Shown: piece after piece, positions 1,447 through 17,296 of the stretch | How the letters are laid out: every line of letters begins with the position of its first letter | Numbering within the stretch: position 1 is the first letter of the stretch | Virus genome (UHGV): UHGV-0304874 | Reading direction: 5' to 3' (one strand) | Source of the DNA: a virus | Length of the DNA: 17,296 bases | Program-made: the position numbers and the translations under genes | The notes under the pieces: model-generated | Told to the model about the DNA's origin: nothing | Seen by the model: the letters and a program-made list of their open reading frames with translations, nothing else | The model's database searches: none

Positions 1447-1465
1447 GGCGAGGCGGGGAAAGCAC
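1447..1465 (+). other. cos: cos site: 19-nt cohesive-end sequence GGCGAGGCGGGGAAAGCAC, the P2/P4-type cos as recalled
   Basis: Exact 19-mer present as a GC-rich island in an AT-rich intergenic region, on the far side of Q from P as expected for the joined genome ends of a P2-type prophage. The identity with the P2/P4 cohesive end is from memory, not a database check. Confidence 0.55.
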
Positions 1466-2407: not shown

Positions 2408-3427
2408 TCATAATGTGTATTTGTTGAATCTAATTATTTCTTCGCCAACCCATTCATTAAGGGCAATAAAGCGAGATTGAATAGGAGTAAGCTCATTGCG
2501 GACAAAGACCTTTGCCACTTTCTCAATATCACCCAGCGACCCGACGTTCTCCGGCTTGCCGCCCATCAACTGAAAGGGGATGCGGTGCGCGTCCAGCAGG
2601 TCAGCGGCGCTGGCTTTTTTGATATTAAAAAAATCGTCCTTCGTTGCCACTTCACTGAGCGGGATAATTTTAATGCCGTCGGCTTTCCCCTGCGGGGCAT
2701 AGAGAAACAGATTTTTAAAGTTGTTGCGGCCTTTCGACTTGACCATGTTTTCGCGAAGCATTTCGATATCGTTGCGATCCTGCACGGCATCGGTGACGTA
2801 CATGATATATCCGGCATGCGCGCCGTTTTCGTAATACTTGCGGCGGAACAGCGTGGCCGACTCATTCAGCCAGGCAGAGTTAAGGGCGCTGAGATATTCC
2901 GGCAGGCCGTACAGCTCCTGATTAATATCCGGCTCCAGCAGATGAAACACGGAGCCGGGCGCGAAGGCTGTCGGCTCGTTGAAGGATGGCACCCACCAGT
3001 AAACATCCTCCTCCACGCCACGGCGGGTATATTTTGCCGGTGAGGTTTCCAGTCTGATGACCTTACCGGTGGTGCTGTAACGCTTTTCCAGAAACGCATT
3101 ACCGAACACCAGAAAATCCAGCACAAAGCGGCTGAAATCCTGCTGGGAAAGCCACGGATGCGGGATAAATGTCGAGGCCAGAATATTACGTTTGACGTAA
3201 ATCGGTGAGCTGTGATGCACGGCAGCACGCAGGCTTTTTGCCAGACCGGTAAAGCTGACCGGTGGCTCATACCATCTGCCGTTACTGATGCACTCGACGT
3301 AATCCAGAATGTCACGGCGGTCGAGTACCGGCACCGGCTCACCAAAGGTGAATGCCTCCATTTTCGGGGGGCTGGCGGTCATTGTTTTTGCCGCAGGTTG
3401 CGGTGTTTTCCCTTTTTTCTTGCTCAT
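2408..3427 (-). CDS. Q: Portal protein (P2 gpQ-like)
   Basis: 339-aa ORF starting MSKKKGKTPQPAAKT, recognised as P2 Q. Its ATG overlaps the P stop by 1 nt (TGATG). The last ~25 codons are noticeably AT-rich. Confidence 0.93.
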   Translation of the reverse strand: MSKKKGKTPQPAAKTMTASPPKMEAFTFGEPVPVLDRRDILDYVECISNGRWYEPPVSFTGLAKSLRAAVHHSSPIYVKRNILASTFIPHPWLSQQDFSRFVLDFLVFGNAFLEKRYSTTGKVIRLETSPAKYTRRGVEEDVYWWVPSFNEPTAFAPGSVFHLLEPDINQELYGLPEYLSALNSAWLNESATLFRRKYYENGAHAGYIMYVTDAVQDRNDIEMLRENMVKSKGRNNFKNLFLYAPQGKADGIKIIPLSEVATKDDFFNIKKASAADLLDAHRIPFQLMGGKPENVGSLGDIEKVAKVFVRNELTPIQSRFIALNEWVGEEIIRFNKYTL

Positions 3428-5199
3428 CAGTAAAACTCCAGAATGGTGGATGTCAGCGGGGTGCTGATACCGGCGGTGAGTGGCTCATTTAACAGGGCGT
3501 GCATGGTCGCCCAGGCGAGGTCGGCGTGGCTGGCTTCCTCGCTGCGGCTGGCCTCATAGGTGGCGCTGCGTCCGCTGCTGGTTATGGTCTTGCGGATAGC
3601 CATAAACGAGCTGGTGATGTCGGTGGCGCTGACGTCATATTCCAGACAGCCACGGCGGATAACGTCTTTTGCCTTGAGCACCATTGCGGTTTTCATTTCC
3701 GGTGTGTAGCGGATATCGCGCGCGGCGGGATAGAACGAGCGCACGAGCTGGAACACGCCGACACCGAGGCCGGTGGCATCAATACCGATGTATTCGACGT
3801 TATATTTTTCGGTGAGTTTTCGGATGGATTCAGCCTGGGTGGCAAAGTCCATGCCTTTCCACTGGTGACGCTCAAGTATTCTGAATTTGCCACCGGCCAC
3901 CACCGGCGGTGCCAGCACCACGCATCCGGCACTGTCGCCACGGTGTGACGGGTCGTAACCAATCCATACCGGGCGGGAGCCGAACGGATTGGCGGCAAAC
4001 GGCGCATAGTCTTCCCATTCTTCCAGCGTGTCGACCATGCAGCGTTGCAGCTCCTCGAACGGGAACACCGACGCCTTGTCGTCAACAAATTCACACATGA
4101 ACAGGTTTTTAAAATCGTCGGCGCTGTTTTCGCGTTTAAGCTGCTCAATGTCGAACAGCGTGCAGCCACCTTTCAGGGCATCCTCAATGGTGACAATCTG
4201 CCGCCACTGGCCGTCCGCACAGAGAAGCCCACCGGCAAGGGCGTTATGACTGACGTCGATTTCCACGCGTTCGGCGGCGCTGGCGCGTCCCCGGTTGAAC
4301 AGTTCACCCGACCAGAACGGGTAGGCGTCGTGCGCCAGCGTGGACGGGGTGGAGAAATAGGTCGAGCGCAGGTGACTCTGTGAGGCCATACCTGATGCCA
4401 CCTTACGCAGTACCTGAAAATTCGGGATCCAGAAAATCTCATCGACGTACAGGTCGCCGTTATGGCTCTGTGCGGTGTTGGAGTTGGTGCCGAGAAAAAT
4501 CAGTTTTGCACCGTTATTGCCCAGGACAATCGGGTCACCGGTCAGGTCAACGTCAACCAGCCGGGCAAAGGCAATGATGTATTCGCGGAACACATACGCC
4601 TGCGTTTTACTGGCCGACAGAAAAATCTGGTTATGGCCGGTTTTCAGGGCGCGCAGCAGCGCCTCGCGGGAAAAATAAAACGTCGCGCCAATCTGGCGGG
4701 ATTTCAGGATATCGCGGATGCGGTGCTCAAGTCCGGCGCGATACCAGTGCAACTGATATTCGAAAGACTGCTCAAAGAAAATCTGCTCCAGCTTTTCGAT
4801 GGCCTCGTCACTGAAAAAATTCTTTTTCGGTTTGCGACGCCCGCCTTTGTTGCGGTTAGCGACGTTCGGATTAAGGTCTGCCTCGTTGCCGGTCTGACTG
4901 TAGCGGTTGACCCGCGCCAGTCGTTCAATCTGGCGTCCCAGCAGGTCAATTTCCTTGAAATCACCGCCGGTTTTCTGCGGTTTGATGATGAGCTGGGTCA
5001 GCCGCGCTTCCAGACTCATTTCGACACGGCTGATGGGGGCAACGCTGTCCCAGCCGTCGCGCTGTTTCCAGCTCTGCACCGTCGGGCGTTTCATCTGCAA
5101 CATGGCGGCAATCTGCGGCACGGAAAAACCCTGCCAGTACAGCAGCGCCGCCTGACGACGCGGGTCGTGTAAAAGAGTGGTGTCTGTGGTGATGGCCAT
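3427..5199 (-). CDS. P: Terminase large (ATPase) subunit (P2 gpP-like)
   Basis: The track ORF 3427..5229 begins MPCIHHGEVFMAITTD. Starting at the internal Met (MAITTDTTLLHDPRRQAALLYWQGFSV) gives 590 aa, the P2 gpP length. Position and divergent orientation relative to O match P2. Confidence 0.93.
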   Translation of the reverse strand: MAITTDTTLLHDPRRQAALLYWQGFSVPQIAAMLQMKRPTVQSWKQRDGWDSVAPISRVEMSLEARLTQLIIKPQKTGGDFKEIDLLGRQIERLARVNRYSQTGNEADLNPNVANRNKGGRRKPKKNFFSDEAIEKLEQIFFEQSFEYQLHWYRAGLEHRIRDILKSRQIGATFYFSREALLRALKTGHNQIFLSASKTQAYVFREYIIAFARLVDVDLTGDPIVLGNNGAKLIFLGTNSNTAQSHNGDLYVDEIFWIPNFQVLRKVASGMASQSHLRSTYFSTPSTLAHDAYPFWSGELFNRGRASAAERVEIDVSHNALAGGLLCADGQWRQIVTIEDALKGGCTLFDIEQLKRENSADDFKNLFMCEFVDDKASVFPFEELQRCMVDTLEEWEDYAPFAANPFGSRPVWIGYDPSHRGDSAGCVVLAPPVVAGGKFRILERHQWKGMDFATQAESIRKLTEKYNVEYIGIDATGLGVGVFQLVRSFYPAARDIRYTPEMKTAMVLKAKDVIRRGCLEYDVSATDITSSFMAIRKTITSSGRSATYEASRSEEASHADLAWATMHALLNEPLTAGISTPLTSTILEFY

Positions 5200-5372
5200 G
5201 AATACCTCGCCGTGATGAATACACGGCAAGGCTACTGAGTCGCGCCCCGCGATTCGCTAAGGTGCTGTTGTGTCAGTGATAAACCATCCGGGACTGATGG
5301 CGGAGGATGCGCATCGTCGGGAAACTGATGCCGACATGTGACTCCTCTAATCACTATTCAGGACTCCTGACA
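5200..5372. promoter_or_regulatory. Divergent P / O intergenic region, expected to carry the Ogr-dependent late promoters for P-Q and O-N-M-L
   Basis: A 173-bp gap between divergently transcribed P and O, the same length as I recall for P2. I could not confidently pick out the promoter motifs by eye. Confidence 0.4.
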
Positions 5373-10140: not shown

Positions 10141-10553
10141 TGATTGTGCTGGTCGTGTTGTTATCACTGGCGGTGGCCGGTCTGTTTCTGGCGAAGCATG
10201 AAAACGCCAGCCTGCGCACCTCGCTGGACAGGGCGAACAACGTCGCCAGCGGGCAGCAGACGACCATCACCATGCTGAAAAATCAGCTTCATGTTGCCCT
10301 CACCAGAGCAGACAAAAACGAGCTGGCGCAGGTGGCACTGCGTCAGGAACTGGAGAACGCGGCGAAGCGTGAAGCACAGCGCGAGAAAACCATCACGAGG
10401 TTACTGAATGAAAACGAAGATTTTCGCCGCTGGTACGGCGCTGGCCTGCCTGATGCTGTGCGCCGGTTGCACCAGCGCCCGGCCTGCACCGACGCCAGTG
10501 ATTGTCGCCAACGCCTGCCCGAAAGTGAGCCTTTGCCCGATGCCGGGCAGTGA
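10128..10553 (+). CDS. lysB: LysB, Rz-like spanin component
   Basis: 141 aa with an N-terminal transmembrane helix (LMIVLVVLLSLAVAGLFLA) and a coiled-coil-like remainder; overlaps the lysA end; P2 position. Confidence 0.8.
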   Translation: MSKLMIVLVVLLSLAVAGLFLAKHENASLRTSLDRANNVASGQQTTITMLKNQLHVALTRADKNELAQVALRQELENAAKREAQREKTITRLLNENEDFRRWYGAGLPDAVRRLHQRPACTDASDCRQRLPESEPLPDAGQ

Positions 10554-10698
10554 CCCGGAGACGAACGGCGATTTAAGTGCCGATATCCGACAGCTTGAGA
10601 ACGCGCTGGCACGCTGTGCCAGCCAGGTAAAAATGATTAAACACTGTCAGGACGAAAACGATGCTCAAACCCGACAGCCTGCGCAGGGCGCTGACTGA
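10408..10698 (+). CDS. lysC: LysC, Rz1-like outer-membrane lipoprotein spanin, started inside lysB in another frame
   Basis: 96-aa ORF with a signal peptide and lipobox-like LCAGC, then Pro-rich sequence; GAGG 7 nt upstream of the ATG; nested in the 3' part of lysB, the known P2 arrangement. Confidence 0.7.
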   Translation: MKTKIFAAGTALACLMLCAGCTSARPAPTPVIVANACPKVSLCPMPGSDPETNGDLSADIRQLENALARCASQVKMIKHCQDENDAQTRQPAQGAD

Positions 10699-11128
10699 TG
10701 CCGTCACGGTGCTGAAAACCAGTCCCGAGATGCTGCGGATATTCGTTGATAACGGGAGTATTGCCTCCACACTGGCGACGTCGCTGTCATTCGAAAAGCG
10801 TTACACGCTCAATGTGATTGTGACCGACTTTACCGGTGATTTTGACCTGCTCATCGTGCCGGTGCTGGCGTGGCTGCGGGAAAATCAGCCCGACATCATG
10901 ACCACCGACGCAGGCCAGAAAAAGGGCTTCACGTTTTATGCAGACATCAACAATGACAGCAGCTTTGATATCAGCATCAGCCTGATGCTGACCGAGCGCA
11001 CGCTGGTCAGTGAGGTGGAAGGCGCGCTGCATGTGAAGAATATCCCGGAACCCACGCCGCCGGAGCCGGTCACCCGCCCGATGGAGCTGTATATCAATGG
11101 CGAACTGGTGAGCAAGCGGGATGAATGA
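10661..11128 (+). CDS. R: Tail completion protein (P2 gpR-like)
   Basis: 155 aa, MLKPDSLRRALTDAVTVLKTSPEMLRIFVDNG...; length and position match P2 R. Confidence 0.9.
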   Translation: MLKPDSLRRALTDAVTVLKTSPEMLRIFVDNGSIASTLATSLSFEKRYTLNVIVTDFTGDFDLLIVPVLAWLRENQPDIMTTDAGQKKGFTFYADINNDSSFDISISLMLTERTLVSEVEGALHVKNIPEPTPPEPVTRPMELYINGELVSKRDE

Positions 11129-11231
11129 GTTTAAGCGTTTTGAAGACCGGCTGGCCGACATTGTGCTCAACAGTACGCAGGCGTCTTTCTGTACTGAATA
11201 CCGCGTCGTGACCGGAGGCTCGGATGAGTGA
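11121..11231 (+). pseudogene. 36-codon remnant ORF at the S position: apparent in-frame fusion of the S start to the J end, with tail genes S, V, W and J absent
   Basis: ATG at 11121 overlaps the R stop by 8 bp and the stop at 11229-11231 overlaps the I start by 8 bp, the overlaps P2 has at R/S and J/I. Only 36 codons (MNEFKRFEDRLADIVLNSTQASFCTEYRVVTGGSDE) lie where P2 has roughly 2.8 kb. Confidence 0.55.
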
Positions 11232-11754
11232 TTCGCGACTGCTGCCGACCGGCTCATCACCGCTTGAAGTTGCCGCCGCAAAAGCCTGTGCGGAAATTGA
11301 AAAAACGCCGGTCAGGATTCGTGAACTGTGGAACCCGGACACCTGCCCGGCAAATCTGCTGCCGTGGCTGGCGTGGGCGTTTTCGGTCGACAGGTGGGAT
11401 GAAAAGTGGCCGGAAGCGACCAAACGTGCCGTTATCCGCGATGCCTATTTCATCCACTGTCATAAAGGCACTATCGGCGCAATCCGGCGTGTGGTGGAGC
11501 CGCTCGGCTATCTCATTAACGTGACGGAGTGGTGGGAAAACAGTGACCAGCCAGGCACCTTCCGGCTTGATATTGGTGTACTGGAAAGCGGTATCACAGA
11601 GGCAATGTATCAGGAAATGGAACGGCTGATTGCTGATGCCAAACCTGCAAGCCGCCACCTTATTGGCCTGAACATTACCCGGGACATTCCCGGCTACCTG
11701 TTCGCCGGTGGTGTGGCTTATGACGGCGATGTAATTACGGTTTACCCCGGATAA
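11224..11754 (+). CDS. I: Baseplate assembly protein (P2 gpI-like)
   Basis: 176 aa, MSDSRLLPTGSSPLEVAAAKACAEIEKTPV...; recognised as P2 I; directly upstream of H. Confidence 0.9.
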   Translation: MSDSRLLPTGSSPLEVAAAKACAEIEKTPVRIRELWNPDTCPANLLPWLAWAFSVDRWDEKWPEATKRAVIRDAYFIHCHKGTIGAIRRVVEPLGYLINVTEWWENSDQPGTFRLDIGVLESGITEAMYQEMERLIADAKPASRHLIGLNITRDIPGYLFAGGVAYDGDVITVYPG

Positions 11755-11764
11755 GTGAGGAATA

Positions 11765-13810
11765 ATGAGCACAAAATTCAAAACCGTTATCACCACTGCC
11801 GGTGCAGCAAAGCTGGCAGCGGCAACCGCGCCGGGAGGGCGGAAGGTCAACATTACCACGATGGCCGTCGGGGATGGCGGTGGTAAATTGCCTGTCCCGG
11901 ATGCCGGACAGACCGGGCTTATCCACGAAGTCTGGCGACATGCGCTGAACAAAATCAGCCAGGACAAACGAAACAGTAATTATATTATCGCAGAGCTGGT
12001 TATTCCGCCGGAGGTGGGCGGTTTCTGGATGCGAGAGCTTGGCCTGTACGATGATGCGGGAACGTTAATTGCCGTGGCGAACATGGCCGAAAGTTATAAA
12101 CCTACCCTTGCCGAAGGCTCAGGGCGTTCGCAGACCTGCCGCATGGTCATCATCGTCAGCAGTGTGGCCTCAGTGGAGCTGACCATTGACACCACAACGG
12201 TGATGGCGACGCAGGATTACGTTGATGACAAAATTGCAGAGCATGAACAGTCACGACGTCACCCGGACGCCTCGCTGACCGCAAAAGGTTTTACTCAGTT
12301 AAGCAATGCGACCAACAGCACGTCTGAAACACTGGCCGCAACGCCGAAAGCGGTTAAGGCCGCATATGACCTTGCTAACGGGAAATATACCGCACAGGAC
12401 GCTACCACAGCGCGAAAAGGTCTTGTCCAGCTAAGTAGTGCGACCAACAGCATGGCTGAGACGCTCGCCGCAACACCAAAAGCCGTTAAGACGGTAATGG
12501 ATGAAACGAACAAGAAAGCGCCATTAAACAGCCCTGCACTGACCGGAACGCCAACGACGCCAACTGCGCGACAGGGAACGAATAATACTCAGATCGCAAA
12601 CACGGCTTTCGTTATGGCCGCGATTGCCGCCCTTGTAGACTCGTCGCCTGACGCACTGAATACGCTGAACGAGCTGGCGGCGGCGCTGGGCAATGACCCG
12701 AATTTTGCTACCACCATGACTAATGCGCTTGCGGGTAAGCAACCGAAAGATGCCACTTTGACGGCGCTGGCGGGGCTTGCTACTGCGGCAGACAGGTTTC
12801 CGTATTTTACGGGGAATGATGTTGCCAGCCTGGCAACCCTGACAAAAGTCGGACGGGATATTCTGGCTAAAGCGACCGTTACTGCCGTTATCGAATACCT
12901 CGGTTTGCAGGAAACGGTAAACAGGGCCAGGAACGCGGTGCAAAAGAATGGCGATACCTTGTCCGGTGGGCTTACTTTTGAAAACGACTCAATCCTTGCC
13001 TGGATTCGAAATACTGACTGGGCAAAGATTGGATTTAAAAATGATGCCGACAGCGATACTGATTCATATATGTGGTTTGAAACAGGTGACAACGGCAATG
13101 AATATTTCAAATGGAGAAGTCGCCAGAGCACCACAACAAAAGACCTGATGAATCTTAAATGGGATGCTCTGTATGTTCTTGTTAAAGCCCTTTTCAGCAG
13201 TGAAGTAAAAATATCTACAGTCAATGCACTGAGGATATTTAATTCATCTTTTGGGGCTATTTTTCGCCGTTCTGAAGAAAACCTGTATATCATTCCTACA
13301 CGAGAAAATGAGGGTGAAAATGGAGATATTGGGCCATTAAGGCCATTCGGCATCAACTTAAGAACAGGAGTTGTGTCTGTTGGTAATGGTGCCAGGATTG
13401 ATGGCGGGCTGGCACTTGGCACGAATAACGCGTTGGGTGGGAACTCTATTGTTCTTGGTGATAACGACACCGGATTTAAACAAAATGGCGATGGTAATCT
13501 GGATGTTTATGCTAATAACGTCCATGTTATGCGCTTTGTTTCCGGAAGCATTCAAAGTAATAAGACCATAAATATTACGGGGCGTGTTAATCCCTCGGAT
13601 TACGGTAACTTTGATTCCCGCTATGTGAGAGATATCAGACTTGGCACACGTGTTGTCCAGACCATGCAGAAAGGGGTGATGTATGAGAAAGCAGGGCACG
13701 TAATTACCGGGCTTGGTATTGTCGGTGAAGTCGATGGTGATGACCCCGCAGTATTCAGGCCAATACAAAAATACATCAATGGCACATGGTATAACGTCGC
13801 ACAGGTGTAA
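11765..13810 (+). CDS. H: Tail fibre protein (P2 gpH-like) with a lower-GC, probably mosaic C-terminal domain
   Basis: 681 aa; N-terminus MSTKFKTVITTAGAAKLAAATAPGGRKVNITTMAVGDGGG is P2 H-like; internal duplicated SETLAATPKAVK motif; base composition turns AT-rich from about 12970. Confidence 0.9.
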   Translation: MSTKFKTVITTAGAAKLAAATAPGGRKVNITTMAVGDGGGKLPVPDAGQTGLIHEVWRHALNKISQDKRNSNYIIAELVIPPEVGGFWMRELGLYDDAGTLIAVANMAESYKPTLAEGSGRSQTCRMVIIVSSVASVELTIDTTTVMATQDYVDDKIAEHEQSRRHPDASLTAKGFTQLSNATNSTSETLAATPKAVKAAYDLANGKYTAQDATTARKGLVQLSSATNSMAETLAATPKAVKTVMDETNKKAPLNSPALTGTPTTPTARQGTNNTQIANTAFVMAAIAALVDSSPDALNTLNELAAALGNDPNFATTMTNALAGKQPKDATLTALAGLATAADRFPYFTGNDVASLATLTKVGRDILAKATVTAVIEYLGLQETVNRARNAVQKNGDTLSGGLTFENDSILAWIRNTDWAKIGFKNDADSDTDSYMWFETGDNGNEYFKWRSRQSTTTKDLMNLKWDALYVLVKALFSSEVKISTVNALRIFNSSFGAIFRRSEENLYIIPTRENEGENGDIGPLRPFGINLRTGVVSVGNGARIDGGLALGTNNALGGNSIVLGDNDTGFKQNGDGNLDVYANNVHVMRFVSGSIQSNKTINITGRVNPSDYGNFDSRYVRDIRLGTRVVQTMQKGVMYEKAGHVITGLGIVGEVDGDDPAVFRPIQKYINGTWYNVAQV

Positions 13811-13813
13811 TTT

Positions 13814-14341
13814 ATGCAGCATTTAAAAAATATTACTGCGGGTAATCCAAAAACTGTTGCCCAATATCAACTGACAAAAAATTTTGATGTTATCTGGTTA
13901 TGGTCCGAAGAGGGAAAAAACTGGTATGAGGAAGTAAGTAATTTTCAGGAAGACACGATAAAGATTGTTTACGACGAGAATAATATAATTGTCGGCATCA
14001 CCAGAGATGCTTCAACGCTTAACCCTGAAGGTTTCAGCGTTGTCGAGGTTCCTGATATTACCTCCAACCGACGTGCTGATGACTCAGGTAAATGGATGTT
14101 TAAGGATGGTGCCGTGATTAAGCGGATTTATACGGCAGATGAACAGGAGCAACAGGCAGAATCACAAAAGGCAGCTTTACTTTCCGAAGCTGAATCCGTG
14201 ATTTTGCCGCTGGAACGCGCTGTCAGGCTGAATATGGCGACGGATGAGGAACGCAGCCGACTGGAAGCATGGGAACGCTACAGCGTTCTGGTCAGTCGTG
14301 TGGATCCTGCAAATCCCGAATGGCCGGAAATGCCGCAATAA
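13814..14341 (+). CDS. G: Tail fibre assembly chaperone (P2 gpG-like)
   Basis: 175 aa, starts 4 nt after the H stop; position and length match P2 G. Confidence 0.88.
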
Positions 14342-14509: not shown

Positions 14510-14887
14510 ATGGATATACATGCAAAAAGAGTTGGCAGTCCACTTTATAAAATTATTATGTACTTAAATAAGTATGAAGAAGATACACTGGAAGACATAA
14601 AACTTCAGTTTCTTTTAAAAAATTTAAAAACTCATTTCAAGAAACTGTTTTATATGATTACTTACATTAATAAAATTCAAAAAGATGCTGAGTTCATCAG
14701 AAAACATGATGCAACATCAATTGTCAGCATTAGTGCTATTGAGTATTGCTATTATAAAATCAGCACGATATGGGATATTGCATATCAGATAGCTGATAAA
14801 TTAATTTTTCCAACTAAAAAAATGGCAACAAATATGATTACCTTGAAAATCATTTCCAGCAATATGCACAGGAATTTCCAGATTTGA
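14510..14887 (+). CDS. Hypothetical protein, 125 aa, AT-rich cargo in the G-FI (Z/fun-position) island
   Basis: ATG 5 nt after GGAGT (14500-14504); strongly AT-rich; no recognisable motif. Confidence 0.4.
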   Translation: MDIHAKRVGSPLYKIIMYLNKYEEDTLEDIKLQFLLKNLKTHFKKLFYMITYINKIQKDAEFIRKHDATSIVSISAIEYCYYKISTIWDIAYQIADKLIFPTKKMATNMITLKIISSNMHRNFQI

Positions 14888-15035
14888 ATTTAAAATGGTA
14901 TAAGGACTTTAATAAAATAAGATAGTTCATGGAGGGATAACAGTAAATCCTTATTATGTCAACGATGATAATATTAAAACAAAGATTTGTTTCCAAGCAT
15001 ATGACTCTGATCTAAACGATCTGATTCAACCTCAT

Positions 15036-15455
15036 ATGATGTATTCAAATAGATTCAATAACAATATTAATTTTGCTGATTACTATTTTACCTTTTATAC
15101 TCATCTTCTCTATTCATATCTTTTTGATTTTTTTGATTTTGTACTTCTTGAGCTAAACAAAGATAAATTACATGATTTAGACAATCTTATTCTTGATGAT
15201 ATACCGCACAAATTGTTTGGTGTTCATCATGAAACATGGTTGTTATCTGATGTTGATCAATTTATGAAAATTACAAGAGAAATGATTTCCCTACAAATAG
15301 CTGATGGTTGTTTAAATAAAATTGAGAAAATACCCTCAAGTGATATTGAACATTTTTTTAACAACTTTCCATTTTGTCTTATGACAAAGGTTAGCTCCGG
15401 AGATTGGGTATTGGTTGAGGATAAAGCGGCTGAAACACAGTCATCGGACACTTAA
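15036..15455 (+). CDS. Hypothetical protein, 139 aa, AT-rich cargo; weak translation signals, possibly a gene fragment
   Basis: ORF with tandem ATG ATG at 15036 but no clear Shine-Dalgarno; the frame is open upstream to 14916 without a start; acidic Asp/Phe-rich N-terminal half. Confidence 0.33.
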   Translation: MMYSNRFNNNINFADYYFTFYTHLLYSYLFDFFDFVLLELNKDKLHDLDNLILDDIPHKLFGVHHETWLLSDVDQFMKITREMISLQIADGCLNKIEKIPSSDIEHFFNNFPFCLMTKVSSGDWVLVEDKAAETQSSDT

Positions 15456-15472
15456 ATTTTTTTTGTGCCAAA

Positions 15473-15615
15473 GTCTACTCCTCGCTCGTCACAGGCTTTG
15501 GCATTCGTTTCAACAACCAAGTGATAGCATATATTGTGACCTGCACCCCGTTGATTCATACATCCTCGATGTAAGCAATCCCTTGAGAACGTCCACTCCT
15601 CGCTCTTAGCAGATC
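15473..15615 (+). repeat. Pair of 15-bp direct repeats (GTCTACTCCTCGCTC at 15473-15487, GTCCACTCCTCGCTC at 15601-15615) in the gap between the AT-rich ORFs and the nuclease-like ORF
   Basis: Read directly: 14/15 identical, 128 bp apart, at the composition boundary between two cargo blocks. Confidence 0.4.
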
Positions 15616-15749
15616 ACACGGTTCTTCAAACGATCCGCTTCGTACCAGAAACGAACTTTTATCTCAAATTTGAACCTTTTAGTGGATGACGACGTTTGTG
15701 TCTTCAAGTAGTCTTAAAAGCATGCGGATAGTGCATAGGAAAAGCAGAA

Positions 15750-16586
15750 GTGATCGATGACCCACTACCAGAAAACTGGCAAGACCTCCAGACAGGGGTC
15801 CAACGTATATTCCGTAATGTTGGCTTGTTTGCAGAAGTCGAGGTCGATTTAGAAACCCCGCGTGGCTCGGTGAATGTGGATGTTCTTGCTACAGATGTTA
15901 GGAGCGTGGACAAAATCAGATACATTGTGGAATGCAAAAACTGGGGTAGTTCTATACCACAGACGGTGGTCCATTCGTTCACCACGGTAATGCATGAAAC
16001 CGGGGCTAATATTGGATTTATTATTTCAAAGCACGGGCTTCAGCAGGGTGCTAAACAGTACACTCAAAACACCAATATTATTGGGATGACATACCTTGAG
16101 TTCCAAAAAAGGTATTTTGAGGCTTGGTGGAATAGATACTTTTGTCCACGTATCGGTGATGCTGCAGACGAACCGCTTCAGTACGTCGAACCAATCAACT
16201 CTAAACGAGATCGCGAATACGCCAAGCTAAGCCTTCAAGCACAAGAGAAGTTCGATCAGTTAAGGCAAGAGAAAGGTGTATCAGTAATGGTTCTCTCTAT
16301 GCTCAATTACAAGTTTATGTCGAAAGCATTAAACACTGGTAACTTGCTGGAAGTCCCAAATAATCTGGATGATTTTAAGAACAGAGTTCTCTCCCGAATA
16401 TGTCCTCACATTGAATGGCAATGTGATACGTACAGAGAGCTGCTAGAGCTCATCTTGCAATACTTATCAGTCACAAAAGCAGAGTTTGATGCAATATTTG
16501 GTCGGGCCATCTTTGAACCGCCAAGTAGTATCACGGGGGTTACGGCTGAAGGTCCCCCTTTAGACGATGGTATTTATCATCATTAG
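15750..16586 (+). CDS. Predicted PD-(D/E)xK nuclease, Mrr-like catalytic domain at the N-terminus, with a ~150-aa C-terminal region of unknown function
   Basis: 278-aa ORF with GTG start 9 nt after AGGA. N-terminal pattern GLFAEVEVDLETPRGSVNVDVLATD ... YIVECKNW ... GFIISKHGLQQGAKQY resembles the Mrr-type restriction endonuclease catalytic core (acidic residues plus E-x-K). Confidence 0.5.
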   Translation: MIDDPLPENWQDLQTGVQRIFRNVGLFAEVEVDLETPRGSVNVDVLATDVRSVDKIRYIVECKNWGSSIPQTVVHSFTTVMHETGANIGFIISKHGLQQGAKQYTQNTNIIGMTYLEFQKRYFEAWWNRYFCPRIGDAADEPLQYVEPINSKRDREYAKLSLQAQEKFDQLRQEKGVSVMVLSMLNYKFMSKALNTGNLLEVPNNLDDFKNRVLSRICPHIEWQCDTYRELLELILQYLSVTKAEFDAIFGRAIFEPPSSITGVTAEGPPLDDGIYHH

Positions 16587-16640: not shown

Positions 16641-16844
16641 GCTCAAAGCAGACTGTCAGATTTGATAGCGTTTGGGCTATGTAAATTGTCAGTTGGAAAA
16701 TGAGTGAGTGCAAATCATGGCAGGCTGGCGGATTACCCGCCTTTTCTTTGTCTGTTGTTTCATCCCCTGACCAGCCAGGTCAAATAGCGTCTCATGCTCT
16801 GCACAACAGAAAATAGTTGCACCCATTAACCACGGAGTTAAACG

Positions 16845-17296
16845 GATGAGTGACTATCATCACGGCGTGCAGGTGCTGGAGATTAACGACGGCACCCGTG
16901 TCATTTCCACCGTATCCACTGCCATTGTCGGCATGGTCTGCACGGCCAGCGATGCGGATGCGGAAACCTTCCCCCTCAATAAACCGGTGCTGATTACCAA
17001 TGTGCAGAGCGCAATTGCAAAGGCCGGTAAAAAAGGCACGCTGGCGGCATCGTTGCAGGCCATCGCTGACCAGTCAAAACCGGTCACCGTTGTCGTGCGT
17101 GTGGAAGACGGCACCGGCGACGACGAGGAAACGAAACTCGCGCAGACCGTTTCCAATATCATCGGCACCACCGACGAAAACGGTCAGTACACCGGACTAA
17201 AAGCACTGCTGGCGGCGGAGTCGGTAACCGGTGTTAAACCGCGTATTCTCGGTGTGCCGGGACTGGATACCAAACAGGTGGCTGTTGCACTGGCAT
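16845..17296 (+). CDS. FI: Tail sheath protein (P2 gpFI-like), N-terminal 150 aa; continues beyond the window
   Basis: ATG at 16845, 8 nt after GGAG; translation [61 protein letters not shown] is P2 FI-like; open to the window end, so absent from the ORF track. Confidence 0.9.

Follow-up and report, generated by a model that had tools for sequence, protein, structure and literature searches.

The genes V, W and J of phage P2 are essential, as established by amber-mutant genetics. Among elements related to P2, the P2 remnant of E. coli K-12 is a defective P2-like prophage, P4 is without structural genes and carries its own hijacking genes, and tailocins keep tail genes and have lost head genes. 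Sp13 of E. coli O157 Sakai is a documented defective P2-like prophage from which morphogenetic genes have been lost, and mitomycin C is an unsuitable inducer for P2-type prophages (PMC2669165). A variable hotspot located between A and cos has been described for P2-like phages (PMC9122126). In the GenBank record of P2, S is marked as an essential tail gene, and V, W and J are described as proteins of baseplate assembly. In this record the O operon ends with S, which is followed by a terminator, while an activator site and a transcription start (pV) are placed just before V, with V-W-J-I-H-G forming one operon. The gene order R-S-V-W-J-I-H-G, which the initial annotation of the locus described here had taken as its reference, was confirmed from the records of P2, Wphi and pro147 and was present in every E. 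coli prophage examined.

Here we analysed a stretch of 17,296 nucleotides of UHGV virus genome UHGV-0304874 (hereafter the window). The window is probably the late-gene region of an E. coli P2-like (Peduovirus) prophage that carries one deletion of 2,301 bp between R and I.

Results

Source scaffold and integrated state

An exact match of the R protein placed the window on a single metagenome scaffold of 23,618 bp (ENA ERZ28664251, XUQI22-1_SAMN14445502_METAG-scaffold_900), to which it is 100% identical with zero N. Scaffold_900 covers the prophage up to attR; the left third of the prophage, int to A, is missing from it. Rightward of the window, scaffold_900 encodes FI, FII, E, T, U, D and ogr, with lengths equal to those of intact relatives. 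The 19-nt P2 cohesive end was found in an internal, closed state, which a linear virion genome would not show. The final 28 bp of scaffold_900, beyond the att core (P2 homology), matched at 100% the chromosomal flank of two integrated relatives (L009 and L011), and the integration site is a common one. Because cos is closed and the scaffold enters the chromosomal flank, the element is a prophage integrated in the chromosome, as expected of a defective prophage, although the basis is thin (28 bp, attR side only).

Late genes surrounding the lesion

The following features of the window are referred to below.

2-1141, - strand: SIR2-family protein, N-terminal 380 of 864 aa, 100% identical to the L006 gene, in the A-to-cos hotspot
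1447..1465, + strand: closed cos, exact match to the 19-nt P2 cohesive end, internal
5267..5289, + strand: activator (Ogr) binding site common to pO and pP, fitting exactly the pattern derived from the annotated site of P2
10661..11128, + strand: R (tail completion), intact, 155 aa; Pfam P2_Phage_GpR, 1.8e-44; full-length match to L003 R
11121..11231, + strand: S'-'J fusion ORF, 36 codons; ungapped alignments to Wphi and pro147; tblastn matches to S 1-15 and J 277-303
11151..11157, + strand: deletion junction, single copy of CTGGCCG kept; repeat present in S (L008 allele) and in J
11224..11754, + strand: I (baseplate), intact, 176 aa; Pfam Tail_P2_I, 2e-56; full length
11765..13810, + strand: H (tail fibre), intact, 681 aa; Pfam Phage_tail_fib and Phage_fiber_2; 99.85% identical to L003 H, full length
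13814..14341, + strand: G (tail fibre assembly), intact, 175 aa; Pfam Caudo_TAP, 4.8e-35; 100% identical to L003 G
15750-16586: 278-aa protein with an Mrr_cat restriction-endonuclease domain; exact sequence in 918 gene-index blocks, widespread
16753..16775, + strand: pF-like activator site before FI, GTTGTTTCATCCCCTGACCAGCC, approximately 70-90 nt upstream of the FI ATG, like the annotated P2 pF
16846..17296, + strand: FI (tail sheath), 5' part, leaving the window end; tblastn match to FI residues 1-150, 98.7%

At the DNA level the window is 95-99% identical to P2, Wphi and pro147. Its late genes are collinear with those of Peduovirus (Q-P-O-N-M-L-X-Y-K-lysA-lysB-R-I-H-G-FI) and identity to annotated prophages at the protein level is 94-100%; full-length copies are present of Q, P, O, N, M, L, X, Y, K, lysA, lysB, lysC, R, I, H and G. 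The initial annotation had described the capsid, terminase, lysis and cargo genes as intact, which held for the first three groups but not for one cargo ORF, which is shorter than the common allele (see below).

The tail and baseplate module is incomplete, with only S codons 1-11/12 and J codons 278-302 left between R and I. R is followed directly by an ORF of 36 codons and then by I, at the positions initially annotated. By tblastn, S, V, W and J were absent from the window apart from S residues 1-15 and J residues 277-303, both of which match within this ORF. The initial annotation had named the finding of these genes elsewhere in the element as grounds for giving up its reading; the rest of scaffold_900 out to attR contained no further trace of them (tblastn). 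The product of the ORF had no Pfam match. Its residues comprise MNEFKRFEDRL(A) from S and (A)DIVLNSTQASFCTEYRVVTGGSDE from the C-terminus of J, i.e. S residues 1-11 joined to J residues 278-302 (ADIVLNSTQASFCTEYRVVTGGSDE), which correspond to the last 25 codons of J. The 8-bp overlaps that had been noticed at both ends of the ORF are ATGAATGA (11121-11128, with R) and the stop/start overlap ATGAGTGA (11224-11231, with I). P2-like phages have the same overlaps natively at R/S and J/I, so these were inherited rather than made by the deletion event.

Endpoints of the deletion

Ungapped alignment placed the interval absent from the window at positions 2703-5003 of Wphi (L001), a length of 2,301 bp or 767 codons, with which blastn against L003 agreed. 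In P2 itself the same endpoints are 3,175 bp apart; P2 carries orf30 between S and V, whereas the nearest relatives are without it. The initial proposal of an in-frame deletion of roughly 2.7 kb thus stood with respect to the frame and to the removal of S, V, W and J, but not with respect to its size. The alignment to P2 and its relatives that had been proposed for mapping the endpoints and any microhomology yielded both. Homology to Wphi, pro147 (L002) and L003 on the left stops at 11153-11157, and homology to J on the right starts at 11151. The endpoints therefore fall in S codons 11-13 and J codons 277-279, on a 7-bp repeat, CTGGCCG. The lost material consists of S codons 12-150, the S-V spacer, V (spike/hub), W, and J codons 1-277 (baseplate wedge).

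The S allele carrying the repeat is represented by L008 (Logan SRR10800392), the sole other contig in the gene index with the exact R allele. L008 is 100% identical to window positions 10445-11157 and then continues into intact S, V, W and J. Its S reads CTGGCCGGA (...CGG CTG GCC GGA...), and J reads CTGGCCGAC (...CCA CTG GCC GAC...); CTGGCCG is present in J of L001, L002 and L003. The commoner S allele (CTGACCG) matches J over only 3 bp exactly, or at 6 of 7 positions. For a random junction, the probability of a microhomology of at least 7 bp is 3.8e-4. All bases of 11060-11260 align to the left or the right flank, and the junction contains no inserted DNA, IS element or recombinase site, and no N. 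The repeat at both endpoints with one copy retained (with reference to the L008 S allele) and the seamless join were thus both found, and at the level of the sequence the single retained CTGGCCG is what marks a microhomology-mediated deletion.

In the 3' end of J of undeleted relatives (L003 14267-14288) the repeat occurs twice, at a spacing of 15 nt (GCTGGCCGCACCACTGGCCGAC). Its upstream copy has 8 bp in common with the L008 S allele, and a deletion there would likewise have kept the frame; the downstream copy of 7 bp is the one used.

The fusion is in frame because S and J are read in the same frame and the lost 2,301 bp equal 767 × 3. This outcome is not evidence of selection, since its prior chance was 1 in 3 and it was set by the position of the repeat.

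Three other origins of the junction were considered and dropped: an event mediated by a mobile element or invertase, given the lack of inserted DNA or a recombinase site at the junction; an engineered in-frame knockout, given the metagenomic source and the location of the endpoints on a natural repeat; and an assembly collapse on a repeat, given that the endpoints have only 7 bp in common.

Sequence affinities of the two flanks

The two flanks of the junction resemble different lineages. Divergence from L003 is approximately 2% to the left (168 mismatches in 8.7 kb) and approximately 0.1% to the right (7 in 6.1 kb), with the step exactly at the junction. The left flank is 100% L008-type, and L008 itself is approximately 2.5-3% diverged from L003 and L020 across S-V-W-J. 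The right flank is 99.8-99.9% L003/L020/L009-type from the first base past the junction, and over the whole arm out to attR the identity to L009 is 99.86%. L020 carries the exact I allele together with an intact, L003-like V-W-J, which differs by 2.9% from that of L008; neither L008 nor L020 is thus the parent. An undeleted parent was not found among complete E. coli genomes, none of which exceeded 99.0% identity over the left arm. A simple intragenomic deletion consequently needs a mosaic parent, of which none was observed.

Mosaicism is a feature of the window as a whole. Blocks of 100% identity connect it to L006 (1-2500), L004 (5500-9500), L008 (10445-11157) and L003/L020/L009 (from 11151 on), a patchwork that may reflect natural P2 mosaicism or, in part, the mixing of strains during metagenome assembly. 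At least three mosaic boundaries other than the junction are present, which weakens the divergence step as proof of chimerism; we did not retain it as such. It is plausible that one more, produced by homologous recombination, lay within the lost 2.3 kb.

Search for the junction in other genomes

Megablast with a 451-bp junction-spanning probe did not detect the junction in 5,426 complete E. coli genomes; approximately 1,590 of these have R/I homologues, which are not joined in any of them. The R-I junction was also not present in 107 matching phage records. The exact junction 39-mer was not in GTDB contigs (one genome per species), a junction 25-mer was in neither IMG/VR viral contigs nor JGI metagenome contigs, and the 36-aa fusion product is not on record in a gene index of 153 billion gene positions. 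A literature search for a described S-J deletion in P2-like prophages found nothing relevant. The deletion event is private to scaffold_900, and the deleted form could be a minority variant in the source sample, from which it is known as one metagenome scaffold.

Late promoters of the element

The P2-type cos of the window is accompanied by late activator sites of the Ogr type, and the pV site is gone with the deletion. In Wphi-type phages, the 66-bp S-V spacer holds GTTGTGCCATYCCYGACACCTCA, with the same GTTGTG-N11 layout as the P2 pO and pF sites and at the equivalent distance to V. This spacer is deleted in the window, which retains only the pO/pP and the pF-like activator sites. The F operon is untouched, and pO/pP is the sole late promoter upstream of I-H-G, so that transcription of I-H-G would now start only from pO. 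A terminator-like site was not found in the fusion ORF; the stretch scanned contained a single one on the + strand (10912, inside R), which is at chance level.

I-H-G should thus depend on read-through from pO, while the native overlap for termination-reinitiation into I is kept. The translational coupling into I-H-G on which the initial annotation relied is accordingly half of the matter: the J/I overlap is kept, but coupling alone would be insufficient, given that pV is lost and pO read-through would be needed.

Variable regions and cargo

Between cos and the 3' end of Q (1472-2487) the window contains approximately 1 kb of DNA, compared with approximately 255 bp in P2 and L003. This segment has two ORFs on the + strand (1599-1868, 89 aa; 1861-2331, 156 aa), for neither of which we obtained a Pfam match above the curated cut-off or a PADLOC match. 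Q of the window has 339 aa rather than 344 aa, with a different C-terminus. The same cos-Q arrangement occurs in E. coli SWHEFF_58 (L006) and is therefore a natural variant.

In the A-to-cos hotspot, the SIR2-family gene leaves the end of both the window and scaffold_900; its best PADLOC matches are prokaryotic-Argonaute-associated SIR2 proteins (Aga_SIR2-PNTD, 1e-59). The hotspot between G and FI (Z/fun, 14510-16586) contains three AT-rich cargo ORFs, two of which had no family match, the third encoding the Mrr_cat protein. The cargo ORF in 14884-15455 has 192 aa in L003 and most relatives but 139 aa in the window (15036-15455), because a single AAATAAG (14908-14914) takes the place of the tandem pair of L003. 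Three unrelated assemblies have the one-copy form as well, which identifies it as a natural 7-bp copy-number polymorphism rather than a private lesion.

Discussion

The element described here is most likely an integrated prophage that was disabled recently and has no tail, judged by the genes that it retains and those that it has lost. Its parent would have had CTGGCCG twice in direct orientation, in S codons 11-13 and in J codons 277-279, and slipped-strand or other RecA-independent illegitimate recombination would have removed one copy together with everything in between. The lesion appears recent, as the remaining late genes have all kept their full length. By analogy with P2 genetics and the annotation of the P2 record, the absence of S, V, W and J would leave the phage without a baseplate and hence without a tail, and the element would at most fill heads with DNA and bring about lysis of the cell. 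I, H and G would now occupy the distal part of a pO operon, O-N-M-L-X-Y-K-lysA-lysB-R-S'J-I-H-G, and the element may persist as an immobile carrier of defence cargo.

The resemblance of the two flanks to different P2-like lineages means that the scaffold could be of hybrid origin, and other ways of producing the junction have to be weighed against a deletion within one genome. An illegitimate crossover at the 7-bp repeat, from an L008-type S to an L003/L009-type J during co-residence or co-infection, would give a hybrid that is still tail-less. It would account for the fall in divergence from L003 (approximately 2% to 0.1%) exactly at the junction, for the distance of 2.9% across V-W-J between the left type (L008) and the right type (L020), and for the 99.86% identity to L009 of the arm from the junction to attR. 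However, since the window is mosaic at three or more other boundaries, a further one within the deleted 2.3 kb is unremarkable, and intramolecular slippage between short repeats is established as the commoner route; we therefore regard such a crossover as possible but unlikely. The same resemblance to two strains, the source in one metagenome scaffold, the lack of the junction anywhere else and the mosaic 100% blocks, which could partly reflect strain mixing in the assembly, would also fit a chimeric read or a misjoin in a metagenome with two intact P2-like prophages. Such an artefact is made less likely by the fact that the joined positions share only 7 bp, too little to connect them in a de Bruijn graph unless reads span the junction: an assembler of this type requires k-mers across the junction that measure at least 21 nt and occur in more than one read. 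If the assembly is from SPIRE, as the name style suggests, it was made by MEGAHIT on Illumina reads (PMC10767986). Moreover, the sequence has no N and no gap, and one remaining copy of a perfect 7-bp repeat is the hallmark of a biological deletion, so that an artefactual origin seems very unlikely to us.

A different question is whether the deleted form is a maintained and mobile variant, which makes its own heads, packages at cos, lyses the cell and receives tails from a co-resident intact P2-like phage. Its genes for capsid, terminase, lysis and fibres and its cos are all intact, but this is equally expected after a recent neutral deletion. Some E. coli genomes do contain more than one P2-like prophage (up to four places per genome; 1,967 places in 1,686 genomes), prophages can complement one another's morphogenetic defects (PMC2669165), and the flanks are suggestive of contact with another P2-like phage. 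Yet the junction is unique to one scaffold and thus marks no lineage, the scaffold is integrated at a common site, and neither satellite features nor evidence of a helper being present was found; dependence on a helper is in our estimate very improbable. It would be bolder still, and we give it very little credence, to see in the S-J deletion derivative a nascent helper-dependent parasite that produces its own capsids, lysis and I-H-G fibres (from pO), borrows baseplates and tails from a co-resident P2-like phage, and spreads the SIR2/Mrr-type cargo at the expense of its relatives. If that were true, the hybrid flanks would be a trace of co-residence, and a helper supplying tails would make the element a small case study of how helper-dependent elements begin.

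Returning to the disabled integrated prophage that we favour, the deletion is an ordinary route to prophage defectiveness and a new instance of a well-known kind of event. Its value lies in a cleanly mapped first step of prophage decay, which left the SIR2-family and Mrr-type nuclease anti-phage cargo genes in place. The deletion also has practical consequences: prophage completeness tools that count hallmark genes would probably score the element as intact, and the 36-codon ORF should not be annotated as a gene.

Compared with known systems, the element is closest to Peduovirus prophages (P2, Wphi, pro147 and those of strains 806883-11-2019, YF-1 and SWHEFF_58), with which it shares gene order, cos, late activator sites and 95-100% nucleotide identity over Q-P-O-N-M-L-X-Y-K-lysA-lysB-lysC-R and I-H-G-FI. 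Cargo is located in the same two variable hotspots (PMC9122126). It differs from them in being without S, V, W, J and the pV promoter. With microhomology-mediated deletions in bacterial and phage DNA it has in common the direct repeat, the single copy kept and a seamless join free of any mobile-element scar. P4-like satellites and R-type tailocins are, like the element, P2-related with a partial virion gene set, but the element keeps head, packaging, lysis, sheath, tube and fibre genes and is without the tail completion gene S and the baseplate core. A P4-like satellite would be expected to have helper-exploitation genes and no capsid or terminase of its own, whereas a full capsid, portal and terminase set is present; the pattern is also opposite to that of an R-type tailocin, with head genes intact and the baseplate core deleted. 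Like Sp13 and the K-12 remnant, the element has lost essential morphogenetic genes and would not propagate alone. Those two prophages are heavily eroded, with most morphogenetic genes gone, while the element described here carries a single clean 2.3-kb lesion as the only structural defect found, which places it at a very early stage of decay.
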